UHGV virus genome: UHGV-0066004
Strand: one strand, 5' to 3'
Length of the DNA: 64,000 nt
From: a virus
The notes under the pieces: model-generated
Database searches by the model: none
Told to the model about the DNA's origin: nothing
Seen by the model: the letters and a program-made list of their open reading frames with translations, nothing else
Part shown: positions 27,776 through 34,956 of the stretch, in pieces
How the letters are laid out: every line of letters starts with the position of its first letter
How positions within the stretch are numbered: position 1 is the first letter of the stretch
Position numbers and translations under genes: made by a program

Positions 27776-27851
27776 TGGAGAATCCGAAGGGACTCGAACC
27801 CTTATAAACCTGTTTTGCAGACAGGCACATAGCCATTTCTGTCACGGATTC
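27776..27851 (-). tRNA. tRNA-Cys (GCA)
   Basis: manual cloverleaf; acceptor GAATCCG/CGGATTC, anticodon loop CTGCAAA, CCA encoded. Confidence 0.75.
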
Positions 27852-27855
27852 AAAT

Positions 27856-27948
27856 TGGAGGAAGATACCAGACTTGAACTGGTACACCGATTTCTCAGCT
27901 ACTGGCAGTTTAGCAAACTGCTCCCTTACCTTTTAGGGTTAATCTTCC
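27856..27948 (-). tRNA. tRNA-Ser (GCT), type II
   Basis: 93 nt with long variable arm; anticodon loop TTGCTAA. Confidence 0.7.
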
Positions 27949-27950
27949 AT

Positions 27951-28685
27951 TTATTTCTGTAATGCGTTCTTCATTTCTGGTGTTGCAATAGTGTCAATTA
28001 CACCAGTTTTACAAGCATCATCAAACCAGTCTGGTAAGATACCTGCTAAGAACCCATTGATATTCGTTTTAAGGTACTCTGCAATAAGGGCAGCTTCTTC
28101 TTCAATCATCTGCACAACTTCATCTGCATAAGCTGTAATCTTTGAGATACCTTCATTAATCTTACTGACAGCTTGGTTAGCTAAATCAGAAACAGTATCA
28201 AGACCCTTGTCAATAGCGTCTTGTAAGTCACTTAATACATCGTTAACACTCTCTAGTGTACTGTTAATCGTATCAATAGCTTTTTGACCATATTCTGTAG
28301 CAACACCCATAATACCACTGAACGGTGTACAACCAACTTGTTCTCCTGCTGCACCCATAACATTGGAATATCCCTTTGCTACCTGCATACGTGATGAAAA
28401 CTCATCAATAGATTTTTGACCGTAGTCTGTCAGGGTCTTAGTAGTTGCTGTAGTGCTTGTAAGGCTTGTTGTAAAGCTGTTTAGAAGGACTGTTGTAAGT
28501 CCAGCAGCAACAAGCTTATCCTTTACTGTAGGGTCTGATACAGAGCTAATAGAGCTTACAAGTGATGTAGAGGCAGCTACGGTTCCACCGAGAACTGCTG
28601 CACCAGTAATAAGGGGGTTAGAAAACCCTTTACCGGTTTTTAAGAGATTGAAAATCTCCTTACCTTGTTCTGTCATCTCTTTCAT
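27951..28685 (-). CDS. hypothetical protein inside tRNA array
   Basis: track ORF 27951..28748 trimmed to internal Met (MKEMTEQ) because its 5' end overlaps a tRNA. Confidence 0.5.
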   Translation of the reverse strand: MKEMTEQGKEIFNLLKTGKGFSNPLITGAAVLGGTVAASTSLVSSISSVSDPTVKDKLVAAGLTTVLLNSFTTSLTSTTATTKTLTDYGQKSIDEFSSRMQVAKGYSNVMGAAGEQVGCTPFSGIMGVATEYGQKAIDTINSTLESVNDVLSDLQDAIDKGLDTVSDLANQAVSKINEGISKITAYADEVVQMIEEEAALIAEYLKTNINGFLAGILPDWFDDACKTGVIDTIATPEMKNALQK

Positions 28686-28703
28686 TAAGCACCTTTGAAA
28701 TTG

Positions 28704-28778
28704 GTAGTCCAGTGGGATTTGAACCCTCTTCTCATGTTTTTCAGACACGCGCTTTAACCATATAAGCTACTTGGACTA
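28704..28778 (-). tRNA. tRNA-Phe (GAA)
   Basis: acceptor TAGTCCA/TGGACTA perfect; anticodon loop CTGAAAA. Confidence 0.7.
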
Positions 28779-28783
28779 TAAAT

Positions 28784-28859
28784 TGGGGTGACCTACGGGA
28801 TTTGAACCCGTATAGACCATGTTCACAGCATGGGTCATTACCGTTTATGATAAGGCCAC
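28784..28859 (-). tRNA. tRNA-His (GTG)
   Basis: anticodon stem CCATG/CATGG, loop CTGTGAA. Confidence 0.7.
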
Positions 28860-28890
28860 ATTTAAGGACTCTCGTAAGAATCCTTAGAAG

Positions 28891-28966
28891 TGGCAGCGGC
28901 ATAAGGATTTGAACCTTAATAAGACAGCTTCAGAGACTGCTGCATTGCCAGTTATGCTATGCCGCT
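28891..28966 (-). tRNA. tRNA-Gln (CTG), tentative
   Basis: acceptor AGCGGCA/TGCCGCT; anticodon loop CTCTGAA with G-U closed stem. Confidence 0.6.
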
Positions 28967-28971
28967 AAATT

Positions 28972-29050
28972 TGGTACTCCATATCGGATTCGAACCGATA
29001 CATAACACAGATTTTAAGTCTGGCCTCTCTGCCAATTGGAGTAATGGAGC
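28972..29050 (-). tRNA. tRNA with Leu anticodon TAA, atypical short variable arm
   Basis: 79 nt; T-arm ATCGG-TTCGAAT-CCGAT; loop CTTAAAA; A73. Confidence 0.55.
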
Positions 29051-29052
29051 AT

Positions 29053-29128
29053 TGGCGGGGGATGTTGGAATTGAACCAACTTCTTCGATTTCAAAGACCG
29101 AGGTTTTAACCTTGTAAACTAATCCCCT
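29053..29128 (-). tRNA. tRNA-Gln (TTG)
   Basis: anticodon stem TCGGT/ATCGA, loop CTTTGAA. Confidence 0.65.
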
Positions 29129-29136
29129 TTAAATCT

Positions 29137-29694
29137 TTACTTTCTCAGTGGATGAATAAAGAATGCCAACATAACTCTTTCCCTTGAGAATGCTCTTTCT
29201 TCTGGGACAACACTTTTTAGTTTCCATCCAATATAAATTCTCCAGTAAAATTGTTTACCAAAGATTTTAATTGATGGGATAAAAGCGAATAATCCCCAAG
29301 CATTACTGTTCCACATTAGGAGATAACCTGTCTGATTATCTTCAGGGTCAGAACTTACGTTGATATTACCTTTCCACTTAGTAACATCTTTTACATCTCT
29401 TCCTAATACATGGTAAGAGAAGTTATAAGCTTTGTTTCTCCAGAGCCATCCGACTCTTTGCATGTAGACACCTAGTTTACCAATCCATCTGATATTAGCC
29501 CATCTTTTAACGTGACCTTCATCACCATCAATTGGGTTGTCATATGTCTCCATCCATCTGAACCCGAAAGGTAAGTGTCCTTTCTTCTCACTGTAGAATG
29601 GAACTACGAAAGGTGCTAAGATAACTGCTAGTATTGCTGCAAGTGGTTCTAGCAAAGCTAAGAAAATCCATGAAGCATATTTTAAGTATCTCAT
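29137..29694 (-). CDS. hypothetical membrane protein
   Basis: 185 aa; hydrophobic N-terminus, Trp-rich. Confidence 0.5.
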   Translation of the reverse strand: MRYLKYASWIFLALLEPLAAILAVILAPFVVPFYSEKKGHLPFGFRWMETYDNPIDGDEGHVKRWANIRWIGKLGVYMQRVGWLWRNKAYNFSYHVLGRDVKDVTKWKGNINVSSDPEDNQTGYLLMWNSNAWGLFAFIPSIKIFGKQFYWRIYIGWKLKSVVPEERAFSRERVMLAFFIHPLRK

Positions 29695-29933
29695 TGTCTA
29701 ACCCTCGTAAGGAGGTAAGCATTATTACTTGTTTCTGAGCTTTCTGGTAACATTGTCTCAAAATTGACACTTTTAAGTTGTCTTCCACCAAAGCAATGAC
29801 CAATAAATCTTTCTACTTTTATTGGGTCGCATTCCCATCCGACTTTTAAGAAAATGTGGGTATCTATAGTGGGAACCCTTACAAACTCAATACTATTGGG
29901 ATTTTCATGTTCAACGACGATTAATGTTTGCAT
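29691..29933 (-). CDS. hypothetical protein
   Basis: 80 aa, start-coupled to downstream ORF. Confidence 0.45.
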   Translation of the reverse strand: MQTLIVVEHENPNSIEFVRVPTIDTHIFLKVGWECDPIKVERFIGHCFGGRQLKSVNFETMLPESSETSNNAYLLTRVRQ

Positions 29934-29941
29934 AAATTCCT

Positions 29942-30017
29942 CTTGCTTATCTGGCGCAGGATAAGGGATTCGAACCCCTATTAACAGTTTCGTAGACTGT
30001 TGCTCTATCCATTTGAA
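29942..30017 (-). tRNA. tRNA-Arg (ACG)
   Basis: acceptor GCAGGAT/ATCCTGC; D-arm GTTC-AAATGGATA-GAGC; loop CTACGAA. Confidence 0.75.
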
Positions 30018-30022
30018 CTAAT

Positions 30023-30100
30023 CCTGCAAAATTGGTGTTCCAAGACGGATTCGAACCGTCACTAATACAAGGTTTGAGCTTGCATCCTCTGCCAATTGGG
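30023..30100 (-). tRNA. tRNA with Leu anticodon CAA, atypical short variable arm
   Basis: 78 nt; anticodon stem GCAAG/CTTGT, loop CTCAAAC; A73. Confidence 0.55.
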
Positions 30101-30101
30101 A

Positions 30102-30176
30102 TACTGGAACATGGTACTCACTAAAGGACTTGAACCTTTTTCTTCATCTTGTAAGGGTGGTGTTTTACCATATAAA
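30102..30176 (-). tRNA. tRNA-like, anticodon tentatively TAC (Val), weak anticodon stem
   Basis: good acceptor, D-arm and T-arm; anticodon stem only 3 of 5 pairs. Confidence 0.45.
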
Positions 30177-30276
30177 CTAAGCGAGTGTGAAAGAGGTCTG
30201 AAGTTGTGCCGCTAACTCAACTCCGTGGAATTTGTTACGGTCTTCAGTTGACACCAGCGGTCTTTCACTTGACCTC
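30176..30276 (-). ncRNA. structured RNA candidate (non-tRNA) within tRNA array
   Basis: terminal complementarity AGAGGTC...GACCTCT and internal CUGAAGACCG motifs related to the Y-RNA-like family. Confidence 0.3.
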
Positions 30277-30348
30277 TGAATTGGTGCTGCTCACAGGACT
30301 CGAACCCGCATTTCCATCCTTACAAGGGATGTGTAATAGCCAATTATA
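30272..30348 (-). tRNA. tRNA-Thr (TGT)
   Basis: anticodon stem CATCC/GGATG, loop CTTGTAA. Confidence 0.7.
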
Positions 30349-30355
30349 CGAAAGC

Positions 30356-30430
30356 AGCATTAATTTGGAGCATCCAGAGGGAATCGAACCCTCAACCTCA
30401 GTTTGGAAGACTGTAATTTTCCCGTTTAAA
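30356..30430 (-). tRNA. tRNA-Gly (TCC)
   Basis: acceptor GCATCCA/TGGATGC; loop CTTCCAA. Confidence 0.7.
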
Positions 30431-30436
30431 CTATGG

Positions 30437-30512
30437 ATGCACTAATTGGTGGAGAAGCAGGGAATTGAACCCTGTACTTAAGTTTGCAAAACTTATGTTT
30501 TAACCATGTAAA
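30437..30512 (-). tRNA. tRNA-Ala (TGC)
   Basis: anticodon stem TAAGT/ACTTA, loop TTTGCAA; T-arm CAGGG-TTCAATT-CCCTG. Confidence 0.7.
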
Positions 30513-30518
30513 CTACAT

Positions 30519-30594
30519 CCCCAATGTATGGTACAGGTGGAGGGAATTGAACCCATCGTCTTACTGATTAAGAGTCAGCCGCATAACCATTTTG
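30519..30594 (-). tRNA. tRNA-Lys (CTT), tentative
   Basis: anticodon stem GCTGA/TCAGT, loop CTCTTAA; weak T-stem. Confidence 0.55.
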
Positions 30595-30601
30595 CTACAC
30601 C

Positions 30602-30679
30602 TGCATTAATTTGGTAGGAGACAAGGGATTCGAACCCTCAAACACCAACTTCTAAGGATGGTAGGTTTACCAATTACCG
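30602..30679 (-). tRNA. tRNA with Leu anticodon TAG, atypical short variable arm
   Basis: 78 nt; T-arm GAGGG-TTCGAAT-CCCTT; loop CTTAGAA; A73. Confidence 0.5.
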
Positions 30680-30756
30680 TCAATCTCCCATTAAATCTTT
30701 TTAGAGAACTTCTAAGAACCTAAGCAACAAGGTTCCACAACAAGCTGTAATAACCT

Positions 30757-30783
30757 TAGAAGCCCTCTAAAAAGACCTAAAAA
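30757..30783 (-). terminator. stem-loop terminator candidate inside tRNA array
   Basis: aaagacc-loop-ggtcttt palindrome with U-run on minus-strand reading. Confidence 0.4.
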
Positions 30784-30937
30784 GGTCTTTGCATAGTCTT
30801 GTTTAATCCGGTGACTAGAACCTTTGGAGAGCTTGATATTATCTCTTCTCCGTGACACATACTAGGTGCTTTACTGTGCTTGTACGACAATACACGAGGG
30901 ATACCAAAGCAACATCCGAATGAAGCTTGGCTTTAAA

Positions 30938-31025
30938 CCTTATTAGGCGGTAAGTAAAGGAGTCGAACCCTCACCGTATCTCTACAGTGGCAACTGTTTT
31001 CAAGACAGTTTGGCTACCATTAGCC
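30938..31025 (-). tRNA. tRNA-Ser (TGA), type II
   Basis: 88 nt, long variable arm; anticodon stem ACTGT/ACAGT, loop CTTGAAA. Confidence 0.7.
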
Positions 31026-31038
31026 GCTACCTACCCCT

Positions 31039-31121
31039 AATAAGACTTTGGCATGGGACGGAGGAGTTGAACCCCTTTGAAACGGTTTTGGAGGCCGTTG
31101 CTCATGCCTTAGAGTCTTAAC
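31039..31121 (-). tRNA. tRNA-like, anticodon tentatively CCA (Trp), extended D region
   Basis: perfect acceptor ATGGGAC/GTCCCAT; loop CTCCAAA; about 7 extra nt in D region. Confidence 0.45.
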
Positions 31122-31263
31122 ATCGTCCCATATTATAATTCGAAGCTTACCGTATTATCTCAACACTGTAAAGCCCCTTCTCAGATTATTTACATGTTCT
31201 GGAAAACATGAGATACAGACCACCTCCCTACAGGAAGACCCGCTTAGGTCGTCTAAGTAATCT

Positions 31264-31340
31264 GCTAACTAATTGGCACACCCTACAGGATTCGAACCTG
31301 TAACTAACGATTTAGAAGACCGTTGCTCTATCCAATTGAA
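31264..31340 (-). tRNA. tRNA-Arg (TCT)
   Basis: D-arm GTTC-AATTGGATA-GAGC; loop CTTCTAA. Confidence 0.75.
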
Positions 31341-31587
31341 CTAAGGGTGCATTAATCTTTAAAGACTCTCTTAGAAAGCCCTTAAAGATGCCCACCTTAT
31401 TAATCATACCGTGGGCTAGTACGCCAAATTCTTTGATGAGGGATTGGAAGACCTCACTGGTGTTTAGCCTATCAAGCTACTGCCAGAAAAACATTGTCGT
31501 TTGCATTTATTTTAAATTTGCAAAATAGACGCTACGCAACGAAAACTAAGGTTACTATAAAGTAGTCACATCTCAATGTCAACAACT

Positions 31588-31663
31588 TTATTGAAATTGG
31601 TACTGGTAGGTGGAATCGAACCACCGATGTTCCCTTATCAGGGGAGTGTTATAACCTTCTTAA
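31588..31663 (-). tRNA. tRNA-Ile (GAT)
   Basis: T-arm GGTGG-TTCGATT-CCACC; loop CTGATAA. Confidence 0.7.
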
Positions 31664-31664
31664 C

Positions 31665-31741
31665 TATACCAGCTTGGAGGTTCAGATGGGAATCGAACCC
31701 ACATTCATAGGGCTTATGAGACCCTTGCATTACCTTATCTG
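31665..31741 (-). tRNA. tRNA-Met (CAT)
   Basis: perfect acceptor GGTTCAG/CTGAACC; loop CTCATAA. Confidence 0.7.
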
Positions 31742-31745
31742 CGAC

Positions 31746-31821
31746 TGAACCATATTGGTAGAAGTGGAGGGATTCGAACCCATCGCCTGTCAGATTAAAA
31801 GTCTGCTGCATCACCATTCTG
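31746..31821 (-). tRNA. tRNA-Lys (TTT)
   Basis: T-arm GGGTTCGAATCCC; loop CTTTTAA. Confidence 0.7.
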
Positions 31822-31825
31822 CTAC

Positions 31826-31969
31826 ACTTCCATTAAATTATCTTTGTAGATAAGCTACCCAGACTTGCTTAAGGTCTGTAGCGATGTGCCTTGTTGGGTT
31901 TAAATCTAGAATTTACCCTTTCACCCTTTGTGGTCGCATACTCACAGGTAAGCTTAATAACTTATCTAC
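31826..31969 (-). ncRNA. structured RNA candidate closed by a 19-bp perfect inverted repeat
   Basis: aattatctttgtagataag at 31826-31844 is the exact reverse complement of 31951-31969; internal CCAGAC/GTCTGG hairpin; no convincing ORF. Confidence 0.4.
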
Positions 31970-31970
31970 A

Positions 31971-32102
31971 AAGATAATTACCAGACCGTTGTTTATCATC
32001 TTAAGTGCTACCATTACACCAACTCGACATCTGCCGAGTGAAGGAATCGAACCTTCGCCTTTTCTTTACCGGAGAAATAGATTGTTTAAGTTTTGCTGTA
32101 AA
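31971..32102 (-). ncRNA. Y RNA-like (YrlA-type) candidate: circularly permuted tRNA-like module closed by a bulged terminal helix
   Basis: minus strand reads 5' CAGAAGACCG ... T-arm GAAGG-TTCGATT-CCTTC, acceptor 3' strand ACTCGGC, AGAT loop, acceptor 5' strand GTCGAGT, TG, D-arm GTGT-AATGGTA-GCAC ... AACGGTCTGG 3'; ends pair with AAG bulge; no anticodon arm. Confidence 0.55.
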
Positions 32103-32115
32103 CGGTCTTCTGTAA

Positions 32116-32188
32116 ATTTGTTGAGCCAGACCAAGTTTAAATTTTCAAAATTAAATTGGCTTGAAATTTCATACGTTCTTGCTGTATT
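32116..32188 (-). ncRNA. Y RNA-like helix element (no tRNA-like module)
   Basis: same closing helix (CAGAAGACCAA ... TTGGTCTGG) around an AT-rich hairpin. Confidence 0.4.
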
Positions 32189-32249
32189 TGGTCTTCTGCT
32201 CCTTTAAAGGATACTCGTAAGGACCCTTTAAGGGAGGGGCTAAATAGCC

Positions 32250-32327
32250 CTCTCAAAATTGGCGGTTACGAAGGGATTTGAACCCTCATCATCTCCCGTG
32301 ACAGGGGAGTATTTTAACCAAATTAAA
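32250..32327 (-). tRNA. tRNA-Asp (GTC)
   Basis: perfect anticodon stem CTCCC/GGGAG, loop CTGTCAC. Confidence 0.75.
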
Positions 32328-32332
32328 CTACA

Positions 32333-32420
32333 TAACCTTTATTGGTGTGCCGTGTAGGAGTCGAACCTACCGAGTCTCAATGACAAGGGATTTACAGTCC
32401 CCACCGCTACCATCTACGGG
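32333..32420 (-). tRNA. tRNA-Tyr (GTA), type II
   Basis: 88 nt with long variable arm; loop CTGTAAA. Confidence 0.7.
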
Positions 32421-32429
32421 ATAACGACA

Positions 32430-32506
32430 CATTTAAATTTGGCGGTTAGTCAGGGATTCGAACCCTGTGCCATTCGCTTAACAGGCGACCGCACATACCT
32501 TATATG
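32430..32506 (-). tRNA. tRNA-Asn (GTT)
   Basis: T-arm CAGGG-TTCGAAT-CCCTG; loop CTGTTAA. Confidence 0.65.
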
Positions 32507-32517
32507 CTTCCTAACCT

Positions 32518-32577
32518 TAATACATTGCCAGACCGTGTTTTTTCTTTTATCCGCAAAAAGTATTTTGTTGCTGAATA
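32518..32577 (-). ncRNA. Y RNA-like helix element
   Basis: closing helix GCAGAAGACCGT ... ACGGTCTGGC with 3-nt bulge. Confidence 0.4.
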
Positions 32578-32583
32578 CGGTCT

Positions 32584-32660
32584 TCTGCAAAATTGGAGGC
32601 GGGTGCAGGAGTCGAACCTGCCGATACCATGCTAATGAGACATGTGAGACGCCCTTTCTC
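32584..32660 (-). tRNA. tRNA (CAT); Met/Ile2 type, 1-72 mismatch
   Basis: loop CTCATTA; acceptor TGCGGGT/ACCCGCC with T1-C72 mismatch. Confidence 0.55.
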
Positions 32661-32671
32661 TATACCCGCAA

Positions 32672-32743
32672 TTCTCAATGACCAGACCAAATATCTTCTT
32701 TGTCCGATTTCGTGTCAGATGAGTAGATTAAGTTTGCTGTAAT
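32672..32743 (-). ncRNA. Y RNA-like helix element
   Basis: closing helix CAGAAGACCAATT ... ATTTGGTCTGG. Confidence 0.4.
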
Positions 32744-32750
32744 TGGTCTT

Positions 32751-32828
32751 CTGTCAAAACTGGCGTTCCAGAAGGGATTTGAACCCTCAGATATCCACTT
32801 TGAAAGAGTGGTGACTTTACCATTTTGT
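32751..32828 (-). tRNA. tRNA-Glu (TTC)
   Basis: perfect acceptor GTTCCAG/CTGGAAC; anticodon stem CCACT/AGTGG, loop CTTTCAA. Confidence 0.75.
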
Positions 32829-32835
32829 CTACTGG

Positions 32836-32912
32836 AACATTAATTTGGTCTCTGTTGGAGGACTTGAACCTCCGGCCTTACCGCCCCAAACGGAACGCTC
32901 TACCAAGCTGAG
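32836..32912 (-). tRNA. tRNA-Pro (TGG)
   Basis: D-arm GCTC-AGCTTGGTA-GAGC; T-arm GGAGG-TTCAAGT-CCTCC; loop TTTGGGG. Confidence 0.7.
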
Positions 32913-33087
32913 CTAAACAGAGATAAACTTTTCAAACTCTATGTAACCACTTTAACATTATTTTTTAGTGGTTGTCAAGAACTTTTTTAAAATATTTTTC
33001 AGTATCTTAGAAAAGCTCTCGTTTCGTTTCTATGTAGAACATATTAAAGGGTATCAAACACATTGTCAATACCCTTTTTAAAACTTT

Positions 33088-34503
33088 TTACCAGATATAA
33101 CGGTCAATCATTACTGCTTTGAGCATTACACTGATTGGGTCAAACTTCTCACCACCAAGCAGAGCTTTTAAAGTAGCTGGAGAAAAACCAGATACCATTG
33201 CTACACCGTTATCCTTAACAGACACTTCGCAAGTACCATTACGGTTTGCTAAGTACCAGAATACCAGTTGAGGCATTTCGTATCCAGCTTTTTTGTACTT
33301 ACTCTGAATTGCTTCAAAGTTTGTACGACCGTTAGCTCCATCAACCTGATTGAACTCCATATCGGAGAAGATGATAAGCTTACTTGGCATATCTTTCTGA
33401 GTCAAGTTGTTTCTTTTACCTGTTTCAAGAATACGGTCAAAAGCTGCTTGTAAGTTAGTTGAGCCATATTCAACGTGTCGCATCACCTGACGATGACGGT
33501 TTCGTAAATCACCACTCAGTTCGATGAAGTGAGGGTTTGTTGAATAAACCATCAACTCATTCTTAAAGCAACCTGTATTACGTTCTGCTACATACAATGC
33601 AAGTGAAACACCAATATCAAGAGCAGTAATTGAACCAAAATTCACCCAAGACATTGAGCTTGAAACATCAGACATACACAAGATGTTTTCACCCTCTGCC
33701 ATCCAGTTTGGTAGTGCTTTCCACTGCTCATTAGCAACATCTGCATTACCATACTTAACAGATTTAATTACATCGTATGGGTAAACAGCACCAGCATTAA
33801 TCTTAGTCTCACCCTTTGATAAGGACTCGATGTAAGCTTTGTAGCGTTCTCCATCTTTGCGGTTAAACAGTTTTTGGTAACGTGCAGCAGCAAGTGAAGG
33901 AATCTTACTGTAGTCAATCTTACCAAACTCATTAGCAGAGATTTTTTGCTCAACTGTATCAGATAGTGCAGACAACAGTGTGCGGTACTCTTTCTCACTC
34001 AAGTTGGCAAACTTGCAGAAACGTTTTACAAACTGCTTATGACGTGGTTTGACTCGTGGTAACCACTTAGCCGCCAAACCTGCTGTTGCAGGGTCTAGTA
34101 ATGCTGCTTCTAGATGTTTGAAGGCATCTGTCTCGAAACAAGTACCTACGAAGATTTTGAAGTCATCAAAACGACCAAGTTCTGCAATCTTATCCATAAT
34201 GCGAAGAACCTGCGTAGGCTCTAAAACTTTGTCTTCAATCGCTTGAAGTAAAACAGTTCTGAAGGCTTTACGCTCACCCATACCTTCTCGTACATCTCGC
34301 ATATGAAGCAAAATACGAACTGCAACATCAACATCCTCACGCAAAGCTTTGTAGAACAGGTCTGGTAAGATTTCTACGTTGCTACGGCTTGAACCAGCAG
34401 CTTTGTAAAAGTCTACAAGAGCAGACATTGATGAAGTATGGTTTACAGCACCATTTTCAGTTCGACCTGCATGAAGGTGCGCATGTTTAAATAATTCGCT
34501 CAT
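33088..34503 (-). CDS. vWA-domain protein, candidate Ro60 (TROVE)-like RNA-binding protein
   Basis: 471 aa; C-terminal vWA with complete MIDAS set (DVSSS, GST, FSD); N-terminal ~270 aa helical domain of TROVE-like size; adjacent to tRNA/Y-RNA-like array. Confidence 0.6.
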   Translation of the reverse strand: MSELFKHAHLHAGRTENGAVNHTSSMSALVDFYKAAGSSRSNVEILPDLFYKALREDVDVAVRILLHMRDVREGMGERKAFRTVLLQAIEDKVLEPTQVLRIMDKIAELGRFDDFKIFVGTCFETDAFKHLEAALLDPATAGLAAKWLPRVKPRHKQFVKRFCKFANLSEKEYRTLLSALSDTVEQKISANEFGKIDYSKIPSLAAARYQKLFNRKDGERYKAYIESLSKGETKINAGAVYPYDVIKSVKYGNADVANEQWKALPNWMAEGENILCMSDVSSSMSWVNFGSITALDIGVSLALYVAERNTGCFKNELMVYSTNPHFIELSGDLRNRHRQVMRHVEYGSTNLQAAFDRILETGKRNNLTQKDMPSKLIIFSDMEFNQVDGANGRTNFEAIQSKYKKAGYEMPQLVFWYLANRNGTCEVSVKDNGVAMVSGFSPATLKALLGGEKFDPISVMLKAVMIDRYIW

Positions 34504-34584
34504 ATTTTACTCTCTTCTCTCATTTGTTTGTTGATGTGACAGACTTTAAAGCAACTTTGTAGAGTCTGTCAACACCTTTTAAAA

Positions 34585-34956
34585 TTATTTTTTGAGAGTC
34601 GCTACAGCAGAGAACGTTGGTTTGTTATCTGTCTGAGACTGACCACCATTATCAGGGGTCTTCTTAGTGTCTGCTGCAATCGCTTTCATCTCACCTGCTG
34701 AGTGAGTCATGATGGTTTTACCAGCCTCCATCATCGACTTCAGGTTTACATCGTCAGTCGTCAAACCGAACTCTGCAAGCTTAGCAGCATCCCTTGTAAC
34801 AACCGCCTCAAACAACTTTGCAGCAAACTCAGCAGAATTATCAATGGTCAGTTGAGCTTTTACAAGTGAGCTTTTGTTACGAGAGCCTTTTGGTCTTCCA
34901 GATGGGTTTCCAGACTGGCCTTTTTTAAACTGGCCTTTGTTTGTTCTGTTTTTCAT
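34585..34956 (-). CDS. hypothetical basic protein with N-terminal GNPSGRPKG motif
   Basis: 123 aa; Lys/Arg-rich N-terminus. Confidence 0.5.
   Translation of the reverse strand: MKNRTNKGQFKKGQSGNPSGRPKGSRNKSSLVKAQLTIDNSAEFAAKLFEAVVTRDAAKLAEFGLTTDDVNLKSMMEAGKTIMTHSAGEMKAIAADTKKTPDNGGQSQTDNKPTFSAVATLKK

Follow-up and report, generated by a model that had tools for sequence, protein, structure and literature searches.

A probable phage ribonucleoprotein module of the Ro60/Y-RNA type, from a divergent lineage, at a tRNA array

Does a phage tRNA array that contains several similar structured RNAs next to a gene for a vWA-domain protein encode a ribonucleoprotein of the Ro60/Y-RNA type? Ro60/Y-RNA particles have drawn study both as machines of RNA quality control and as autoantigens, and Ro60 binds Y RNA on its outer surface and the 3' ends of misfolded RNA in its central cavity. 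To our knowledge, every Ro60 particle described from bacteria or phages pairs a canonical TROVE protein with Y RNAs of the CGAA type. The locus lies in a stretch of 64,000 nucleotides of the viral genome UHGV-0066004 (the window), and the phage is of the Felix-O1 type. A preliminary description had proposed that a 471-aa protein and at least four neighbouring RNAs form such a module, co-transcribed with the tRNAs. The analysis presented here points to a phage-borne ribonucleoprotein module of this type, from a divergent lineage, as the probable explanation. The features of the locus are as follows.

34543..34572, minus strand: sigma-70-like promoter candidate (TTGACA-18-TAAAGT), a consensus match only, shortly upstream of the open reading frame
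33088..34503, minus strand: gene for the 471-aa Ro60-like protein (Pfam DUF2828 and DUF7788, PHROG 850)
33069-33041 and 32978-32949, minus strand: two sigma-70-like promoter candidates in the interval from the gene to tRNA-Pro, consensus matches only
31756..32922, minus strand: tRNA genes Pro, Glu, Met, Asn, Tyr, Asp and Lys, which flank and separate the elements
32679..32756, minus strand: E4, short RNA of 78 nt, outer helix UGAC/GUCA, AGA/G internal loop
32525..32590, minus strand: E3, short RNA of 66 nt, outer helix UUGC/GCAA
32123..32201, minus strand: E2, short RNA of 79 nt, outer helix GAGC/GCUC
31978..32115, minus strand: E1, long YrlA-like RNA of 138 nt, terminal module around a permuted tRNA-like domain
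32056-32040 (T arm), 32039-32022 (acceptor-like stem-loop) and 32019-32005 (D arm), minus strand: tRNA-like parts of E1
31836..31979, minus strand: further structured RNA of ~145 nt with a 24-bp closing stem, between E1 and tRNA-Lys

The open reading frame is exactly where it had been placed, and the protein folds as a Ro60-like ring composed of a TROVE-like helical repeat domain and a vWA/MIDAS closure. Its N-terminal HEAT-like helical repeats form the ring (TROVE fold), which the C-terminal vWA domain closes, and vWA structures are its next-best fold matches. The complete MIDAS claimed earlier was borne out, as D279, S281, S283, T349 and D381 (DxSxS, T, D) are unchanged in 41 homologs and also across phage, amoebozoan and plant members of the family. 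The proposed Ro60 layout (TROVE plus vWA) holds at the level of fold but not of sequence family: Pfam TROVE (PF05731) did not match the protein, a Pfam scan at E<=1 returned DUF2828 and DUF7788 only, phmmer against PDB chains gave nothing relevant, and the family profile found Ro60 among PDB sequences only at an insignificant E of 0.74. The DUF2828/DUF7788 lineage comprises 5832 representative clusters. In UniProt, eukaryotic orthologs are named 'TROVE domain-containing protein'.

Downstream of this gene, on the same strand and between tRNA genes, all four RNAs reported earlier were recovered with their common terminal helix, although the coordinates first given were 7-13 nt too low and are replaced by those listed above. 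Each begins with CAGAAGACC(R) and ends with (Y)GGUCUGG. In each, a 4-bp helix on the outside and a 3x1 internal loop lead into a 7-bp stem; a 3-nt linker and CAGCAA come next, then a body that varies, and last the 3' strand of the stem with a G directly behind it. The single-stranded, invariant CAGCAA had been overlooked in the preliminary description. The 3-nt bulge noted there is real and corresponds to the 3x1 internal loop (AGA opposite G), closed by the outer helix, whose pairs covary from copy to copy (UUAC/GUAA, GAGC/GCUC, UUGC/GCAA, UGAC/GUCA). This loop and outer helix are an extension of the module in this genus. Stem and linker are AGACCAA/UUGGUCU with UUA-CAGCAA in E4, which is then followed by G, AGACCGU/ACGGUCU with AUU-CAGCAA in E3, and AGACCAA/UUGGUCU with AUA-CAGCAA in E2. 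The exact pattern AGAAGACC-N30-60-GGTCTGG occurs three times against 0.00 expected from shuffles. A stricter descriptor gave four matches, all at the E1-E4 site and none in the rest of the 64 kb, where shuffled sequence gave 0.21 on average and 2 at most. Rfam at gathering thresholds detected tRNAs only, and in the about 300 Felix-O1-like genomes with this locus the elements are without any annotation.

E1, which lies ~970 nt downstream of the gene with its 5' and 3' ends paired in the terminal stem, is a circularly permuted tRNA mimic of YrlA design. A T arm (GAAGGUUCGAUUCCUUC) is followed by a 7-bp hairpin, U8-G9 and a 4-bp D stem, with A14 A15..G18 G19..A21 in the D loop. After circular permutation, ARAGORN returned a cloverleaf for E1 and for its counterparts in four other phages, and part of E1 (32039-32089) matches the Rfam tRNA model at 22 bits. 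YrlA RNAs carry the tRNA modifications pseudouridine 55 and dihydrouridine.

A close design among characterised systems is that of bacterial Rsr in Salmonella and Deinococcus, likewise a ring-shaped TROVE+vWA protein with small RNAs adjoining (Chen et al., 2013/2014; PMC4201824). YrlA RNAs adjoin Ro60 genes in bacteria and phages and are substrates of tRNA-modification enzymes (PMC4201824). Similarly to E1, YrlA has a terminal stem around a permuted T arm, acceptor hairpin and D arm, and the bacterial system also has shorter companion RNAs that lack the tRNA-like part; E2-E4, at 66-79 nt, are comparable to YrlB. However, the phage protein belongs to another sequence family (DUF2828/DUF7788, as above), its RNAs are embedded in a tRNA array with no rtcBA operon present, and their signature is a 7-bp stem with NNN-CAGCAA and a 3' G instead of the GNCGAAN0-1G of YrlA. 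This CGAA motif is absent from the four window elements and from 24 elements of other phage loci, all of which carry (N)NNCAGCAA in its place. Neither Rfam Y_RNA nor YrlA matched the window region 31800-33100, even at E<=10, and because both models fail and the CGAA motif is absent, E1-E4 are placed in neither family. Elements of the mycobacteriophages LeBron and Krypton555 do match YrlA (RF02553) at 39.8 and 38.3 bits (E about 3e-5), below its gathering score of 69 bits. The permuted tRNA mimic and these sub-threshold matches support the earlier label, in that E1-E4 are Y-RNA-like in design. In the Thermus phage phiLo, phiRo60 binds its adjacent RNAs Yrl1/Yrl2 and host PNPase (Hu et al., 2025; PMC12135203; PDB 9KOP, 9L5Y); this binding was shown experimentally, whereas the module described here is known from computation, and phiRo60 is a canonical TROVE-annotated protein of ~15% sequence identity whose RNAs have CGAA motifs. 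Metazoan Ro60 (PDB 1YVP, 2I91) is at 13% identity, with a different helix sequence in its Y RNAs, which are Pol III transcripts, whereas the phage RNAs would come from a tRNA operon.

Homologs of the gene also have the module beside them in phages that infect Mycobacterium, Bacillus, Listeria, Staphylococcus, Campylobacter and Aeromonas. In seven of nine phages, from four host phyla, it lies on the gene strand beside the homolog and has no match elsewhere in those loci. Across 64 distant viral contigs, 98 gene-strand matches were found in 49 loci, at a median distance of 149 nt from the gene, compared with one match on the opposite strand and none in shuffles. The strict descriptor found no match in the other 15 of the 64 loci, nor in the Erwinia, Vibrio and Yersinia phage loci; in two loci without strict matches, variants of the module are visible by eye. 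CAGCAA and the 3' G are invariant in the module elements, and UUA is the commonest linker. The stems in the distant contigs comprise 43 distinct sequences, and in the stem alignment every one of the 196 stem cells is paired and all seven pairs have compensatory changes; the covariation score (1.10, against 0.28 in shuffles) is inflated, as the alignment was built from elements chosen for having a stem. MAFFT alignment of natural-length elements was rejected since it misaligned the 3' strands, and so was a covariance model from a collapsed alignment, in which real elements scored poorly (11-21 bits) because of the long variable insert. The counts are based instead on the explicit descriptor with its shuffle and strand controls.

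The position of the elements also bears on how they would be made. E4 is separated by 4 nt from the preceding tRNA-Glu and by 8 nt from the tRNA-Met that follows; for E3 the spacing is 3 nt from the preceding tRNA-Met and 8 nt to the following tRNA-Asn. The promoter candidates within 32949..33069 probably mark the start of a tRNA/sRNA operon. Since these two promoter-like sites separate the gene from the RNAs, the proposed co-transcription probably applies to RNAs and tRNAs, and not necessarily to the gene. The neighbouring structured RNA at 31836..31979 is highly stable (dG -48.3, z -5.5) and is kept in another locus (L010) with compensatory changes. It holds a mini-hairpin, CAGACC-UUAAGCAA-GUCUGG, that echoes the module.

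In the Ro60/Y-RNA-type explanation, the shared module would be the docking site of the 471-aa protein. The RNAs would share transcripts with the tRNAs, starting at promoters that lie just downstream of the gene. Given their spacing of 3-4 nt behind one tRNA and 8 nt ahead of the next, they could be released by RNase P and tRNA 3'-end processing. The particle may then act on RNA metabolism in infection. By analogy with Rsr-YrlA-PNPase and with the phiRo60-Yrl-PNPase complex of the Thermus phage, the variable RNA body could serve to recruit, or to gate, an exoribonuclease of the host or enzymes that handle tRNA, and phage tRNA or RNA might thereby gain in stability or quality control.

It is unlikely that the RNAs work without the phage protein, as decoys or sponges of host Rsr, PNPase or tRNA-modifying enzymes, or that the module is not a stable RNP partner but a cis-regulatory operator by which the protein governs expression of its own gene or of neighbours. 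In favour are the 93 of 98 distant elements that are upstream of the gene, the Vibrio phage VH7D, in which the Ro-like gene itself carries AAAGACAUUUUACAGCAA in its 5' UTR after a promoter-like site, and the modification of YrlA by tRNA-modification enzymes (PMC4201824). However, the window elements lie downstream of the gene among the tRNAs, while tandem copies, variable bodies, a closed terminal stem and tRNA-like cargo suit free-standing RNAs better than operators, and the strict co-occurrence of module and gene speaks for the phage protein as the partner. An improbable reading is that the elements are processing or punctuation spacers of the tRNA operon, which guide RNase E, RNase III or RNase P and have no specific relation to the protein. 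Their distance of 3-8 nt from tRNA ends, the resemblance of the neighbouring 24-bp duplex to an RNase III substrate and the promoter-like sites that uncouple them from the gene would all fit, but the module adjoins the homolog without an adjoining tRNA array in Staphylococcus phage S-CoN_Ph1 and in LeBron and Krypton555, the strand bias and short distance to the gene in distant contigs tie it to the gene, and neither an invariant single-stranded hexamer nor a tRNA-mimic cargo is expected of simple spacers. Decaying tRNA pseudogenes or a small repeat or mobile element of tRNA arrays, with a coincidental likeness to Y RNA, could account for the tRNA-derived arms of E1 and the near-identical ends of the four copies, but this very improbable reading was rejected on the stem covariation around a fixed CAGCAA and 3' G and on the strand-specific gene linkage in phages of four host phyla, and the permuted order, with T arm, D arm and acceptor hairpin all intact, is shared by five unrelated phages.

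The dictyostelid Class I RNAs have been called unique to dictyostelids; their function lacks an explanation, and their mechanism has been a puzzle since 2004. Their family (RF01414) is the best Rfam match of the elements and the only non-tRNA family that repeatedly matches phage elements, with 24.0 bits for E3, 17.5 bits for E4 and at best 29.6 bits (Aeromonas phage LAh_6), all below the gathering score of 41.5 bits. Class I RNAs (42-65 nt, in multi-copy families) resemble them closely, with a short 5'/3' stem, (C)UUACAGCAA directly after it, a variable body in which an A-rich tract precedes the 3' strand, and ...(U)G at the 3' end (Kjellin et al., 2021; PMC7919456). They differ in having a 6-bp stem and a 4-nt linker, against 7 bp and 3 nt in the phage RNAs, and in the register of their 11-nt motif CCUUACAGCAA (3' end CUG(U)), which is one nucleotide off from the phage module, its first positions being stem positions in the phage RNAs. 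Moreover, they have a DUSE promoter/Pol III context, unlike the bacterial-type tRNA operon of the phage elements. A homolog of the phage protein, at 34% identity, is encoded by every dictyostelid. The only reported direct binder of Class I RNAs is the RRM protein CIBP (PMC7919456), and they are not known to be linked with any TROVE-like protein. DDB_G0281243, pulled down with DdR-21, one of the Class I RNAs, was considered as a DUF2828 protein and rejected; as the D. discoideum ortholog is a different protein, DDB_G0281913, there is no experimental Class I link. Family motifs gave nothing relevant in the part of the Dictyostelium proteome supplement that was available. Tentatively, and while leaning slightly against it, we raise the possibility that a 7-bp terminal stem with UUA-CAGCAA and a 3' G is an ancient recognition element of the whole DUF2828/DUF7788 TROVE branch, eukaryotes included.

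If this were true, the abundant Class I RNAs would be the Y-RNA equivalents of the branch, their partner would be the uncharacterised TROVE-like DDB_G0281913 (Q54T94), and undiscovered partner RNAs would be expected in those plants, oomycetes, fungi and giant viruses in which the protein occurs. The findings offer a concrete, testable candidate partner for Dictyostelium Class I RNAs. In addition, a second, very large lineage gains both an assigned fold and a well-defined family of putative RNA partners, recognisable by a simple signature of sequence and structure, which makes hundreds of phage genomes annotatable at once. A phage of E. coli or Salmonella could be a tractable system for studying the role of a viral Ro RNP beside its tRNA arsenal.

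The region at 31800-34600 matched 299 phage records by megablast, 247 of them with query coverage of at least 80%, and the closest was Escherichia phage vB_EcoM_ASO1A (99.6% identity). On these matches the window is a Felixounavirus, i.e. a Felix-O1-like myovirus. ARAGORN called 26 minus-strand tRNA genes at 27776-32922, and no family beyond tRNAs was matched in the window by Rfam at gathering thresholds. The tRNA array is interrupted by ORFs of 265 aa (27951-28748) and 185 aa (29137-29694), both on the minus strand.

The 471-aa ORF at 33088-34503 on the minus strand is as first described, and its reading as a TROVE plus vWA protein, previously drawn from domain order, can now be divided into two parts. 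Pfam assigned DUF2828 (E 4e-29) and DUF7788 (E 1.8e-43) rather than TROVE, PHROGs assigned phrog_850, 'RNA-binding protein' (E 1.7e-183), and a sequence comparison with PDB chains returned nothing significant. An AlphaFold2 model built from an alignment of 41 homologs was confident (pLDDT 87.6, pTM 0.87), and its top 12 Foldseek matches in the PDB were without exception Ro60/TROVE structures with full-length alignments, including Thermus phage phiLo Ro60 (E 7.5e-8), Xenopus Ro60 (TM 0.65) and Deinococcus Rsr, while every match below these covered the vWA domain only. The TROVE plus vWA layout is therefore supported for the fold, but not for the sequence family. Invariance in the same alignment extends to the MIDAS residues D279, S281, S283, T349 and D381, which bears out the complete MIDAS set noted earlier, and to many Arg, Lys and Trp residues in the N-terminal part. 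Homologs were found in 710 phage records by tblastn; those of mycobacteriophages are 34% identical over the full length and are annotated 'Ro-like RNA binding protein'. Overexpression of LeBron gp53 is moderately toxic, in a report where partner RNAs go unmentioned (PMC13148394). Directly upstream of the Ro-like gene lies a 123-aa basic DUF5681 protein (34585-34956, minus strand), and this synteny is kept in every one of the Ounavirinae relatives compared (L010-L012, NC_041979).

The four small RNA elements proposed among the tRNA genes downstream of the Ro-like gene are real: all are on the minus strand, start with CAGAAGACC and end with GGUCUGG. Their exact extents stand 7-13 nt higher than in the preliminary description:

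Small RNA elements of the window
E4: 32756-32679, minus strand, RNA element
E3: 32590-32525, minus strand, RNA element
E2: 32201-32123, minus strand, RNA element
E1: 32115-31978, minus strand, RNA element

In each, an outer helix of 4 bp leads through a 3x1 internal loop, with AGA facing G, into a 7-bp stem; after a linker of 3 nt come an invariant CAGCAA, a body that varies, and then the 3' strand and a G. The outer helix covaries across the four copies (UUAC/GUAA, GAGC/GCUC, UUGC/GCAA, UGAC/GUCA). A strict descriptor, which asks for a 7-bp stem with no more than one G-U, a linker of 3 nt, CAGCAA, 15-130 nt, the 3' strand and G, matched E1-E4 and nothing else in the 64 kb (shuffles: mean 0.21, maximum 2). 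A phage with 97% identity has no annotation over these intervals in its RefSeq record. E3 and E4 lie 3-4 nt past one tRNA and 8 nt ahead of the next, and promoter-like sites are present between the Ro-like gene and tRNA-Pro (33069-33041 and 32978-32949); the small RNAs would be set free by tRNA processing.

Two other structures were seen on the same strand. Between E1 and tRNA-Lys, a very stable RNA of ~145 nt (31836-31979; dG -48.3 kcal/mol, z -5.5) has a 24-bp closing stem and is kept with compensatory changes in the Ounavirinae relative L010 (63% protein identity). Its mini-hairpin, CAGACC-UUAAGCAA-GUCUGG, echoes the terminal module of E1-E4 and covaries in L010 (A to U with U to A), and the RNA may represent either an RNase III site or a degenerate fifth element. 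Two adjacent hairpins occupy 32199-32259, between tRNA-Asp and E2 (dG -22.5 kcal/mol, z -2.7).

When loci around homologs were taken from nine distant phages, the strict descriptor found 2-7 elements in seven, all on the gene strand and directly adjoining the gene, with no match elsewhere in those seven loci:

Descriptor-defined elements in seven phage loci
Krypton555 (Mycobacterium): 3 elements, downstream of gene, middle one YrlA-like
LeBron (Mycobacterium): 3 elements, downstream of gene, middle one YrlA-like
LAh_6 (Aeromonas): 7 elements, upstream, last one overlapping the gene's annotated 5' end
Tsamsa (Bacillus): 3 elements, one inside the tRNA array
LP-064 (Listeria): 3 elements, upstream of gene
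F356 (Campylobacter): 2 elements, upstream of gene
S-CoN_Ph1 (Staphylococcus): 3 elements, downstream of gene

The middle mycobacteriophage elements scored 39.8 and 38.3 bits (E ~3e-5) against Rfam YrlA, below the cut-off of 69 bits. The preliminary description had made its proposal hang partly on conserved covariation in related phages, and such covariation was found: when 28 elements were aligned without gaps, neither CAGCAA nor the G that follows the 3' strand varied, every one of the 196 stem cells was paired, and compensatory changes occurred at 7/7 pairs. The covariation score was 1.10 versus 0.28 in shuffles (0/500 as high), a statistic that is inflated because the elements were chosen for possessing a stem; when the register is slid, just 30-43% of cells are paired. 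A less biased test covered 428 kb from 64 distant loci in IMG/VR (protein identity 36-45%), in which the gene strand gave 98 matches, spread over 49 loci, the opposite strand one and shuffles none. These 98 lie at a median of 149 nt from the gene and comprise 86 unique sequences with 43 distinct stems; 31 reach 100 nt or more, of which 13 carry a T-loop motif. Ounavirinae relatives retain the elements with altered stems (AGACUAU, AGUGUCU, AGACUCU, GGACUGU). The RNA is accordingly modular: a conserved terminal module carries variable cargo, as in Y RNAs.

Several of the compared loci hold further features. In Vibrio phage VH7D (L001, 3930-4000), AAAGACAUUUUACAGCAA stands in the Ro-like gene's own 5' UTR right after a promoter-like TTTACA...TATAAT, with a possible 3' partner inside the coding region, which hints at autoregulation in schizoT4-like phages. 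Tsamsa (L005, 2480-2808) has a ~330-nt non-coding stretch of higher G+C between the tRNA array and the gene, flanked on each side by an element and without an Rfam match at E<=10; it is possibly another structured RNA. In LP-064 (L006; 1429-1980 and 5813-7024), the three partner RNAs and the DUF2828 gene are preceded, ~640 nt upstream, by a ROOL RNA (RF03087; 87.4 bits, E 4e-16, just below the 99.1-bit cut-off), and a gene for an RtcB RNA ligase follows downstream.

The terminal module of E1 encloses a T arm (GAAGGUUCGAUUCCUUC) and an acceptor-like hairpin of 7 bp; U8-G9 and a D stem of 4 bp with the loop A14 A15..G18 G19..A21 come next. Chen et al. described the same order of T arm, acceptor-like hairpin and D arm for YrlA (PMC4201824). 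E1 partially matches the Rfam tRNA model (22 bits). After circular permutation at the hairpin loop, E1 and its counterparts from LeBron, Krypton555, Tsamsa and one Ounavirinae relative were all called tRNA cloverleaves by ARAGORN (5/5), and in each the anticodon-loop 'intron' was the terminal stem and CAGCAA module. As such, E1 is a tRNA mimic of the YrlA type. A 117-nt tRNA-like gene of LAh_6 (L003, 1494-1610), in unpermuted order and with a ~45-nt anticodon-loop insertion containing CUUACAGCAA, is a second way to fuse the motif with a tRNA body. In the Ounavirinae relatives L011 (6600-6760) and L012 (7990-8230), a tRNA-like sequence, conserved and interrupted by a large internal insertion, precedes '...aataacacgaggcgac...', and a weak tmRNA match (RF00023, 25.5 bits) lies at L011 8097-8173; both are non-tRNA RNAs inside the arrays.

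The only non-tRNA Rfam family that repeatedly matched the elements was RF01414, Dictyostelium Class I RNA. LAh_6 has six full-length matches within 900 nt (29.6-19.1 bits, E from 0.0026), the window has two (24.0 and 17.5 bits) and LP-064 one; all of them coincide with descriptor-defined elements and fall short of the cut-off of 41.5 bits. Class I RNAs measure 42-65 nt, with a short 5'/3' stem, an 11-nt motif beside the 5' strand and conserved ends AAG...CUGU, and are reported to be unique to dictyostelids (PMC7919456). Published members read GUUGAC-CUUA-CAGCAA...GUCAAC-UG, compared with the phage consensus AGGACAC-UUA-CAGCAA...AAA-GUGUCCU-G, and an A-rich tract ahead of the 3' strand is common to both. 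Moreover, D. discoideum DdR-66 and DdR-67 are long Class I RNAs (~100-140 nt) with the terminal module and an extra internal structured domain; beside the short ones they parallel the short and long, cargo-bearing, phage elements.

The protein family likewise bridges phages and eukaryotes. It numbers 5832 representative clusters and is present in plants, algae, fungi, oomycetes, a dinoflagellate, a giant virus and Amoebozoa; one member from a plant shares 32% identity with the phage protein (E 1e-46). Among the matches listed, each sequenced dictyostelid has one ortholog of ~500 aa. That of D. discoideum, DDB_G0281913 (Q54T94; UniProt 'TROVE domain-containing protein'), shares 34% identity with the window protein across 442 residues (E 9e-69), as well as its Pfam architecture. 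We tentatively propose, with slightly more doubt than conviction, that Class I RNAs are the Y-like partners of this TROVE-like protein. Against this, DdR-21, one of the Class I RNAs, pulled down GuaB, NdkC, CIBP and DDB_G0281243, a different gene from the ortholog (bioRxiv 10.1101/2020.04.05.026054), and non-dictyostelid amoebae yielded no Class I RNAs (PMC7919456), although other amoebozoan lineages do have members carrying the protein. Among the papers searched there was no reported connection between Class I RNAs and Y RNAs.

Apart from the RNA coordinates, the original observation holds, and its interpretation as a Ro60/Y-RNA module is supported by the fold, the RNA design and comparative genomics. 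The protein stands outside Pfam TROVE, unlike curated Ro60 families, the window gave no match to Rfam Y_RNA or YrlA, and CAGCAA takes the place of the GNCGAA/CGAA motif of Ro60/Y RNA families. From these comparisons the system is best regarded as a variant outside the curated families, one that appears to work like Ro60/Y RNA yet is no sequence-level member of them. Rsr binds YrlA and tethers PNPase (PMC4201824), and phiRo60 of a Thermus phage binds adjacent Yrl RNAs and host PNPase, which is slowed (PMC12135203). Because of this precedent and the strict genomic linkage, the window protein would be expected to dock on the shared module of E1-E4 and form an RNP. In other phages, an RtcB RNA ligase gene lies downstream of the DUF2828 gene (LP-064), RNA ligases occur near the homologous gene (phages of Erwinia and of Aeromonas) and in several phages the gene borders a tRNA array, a context that points to RNA repair and tRNA biology.
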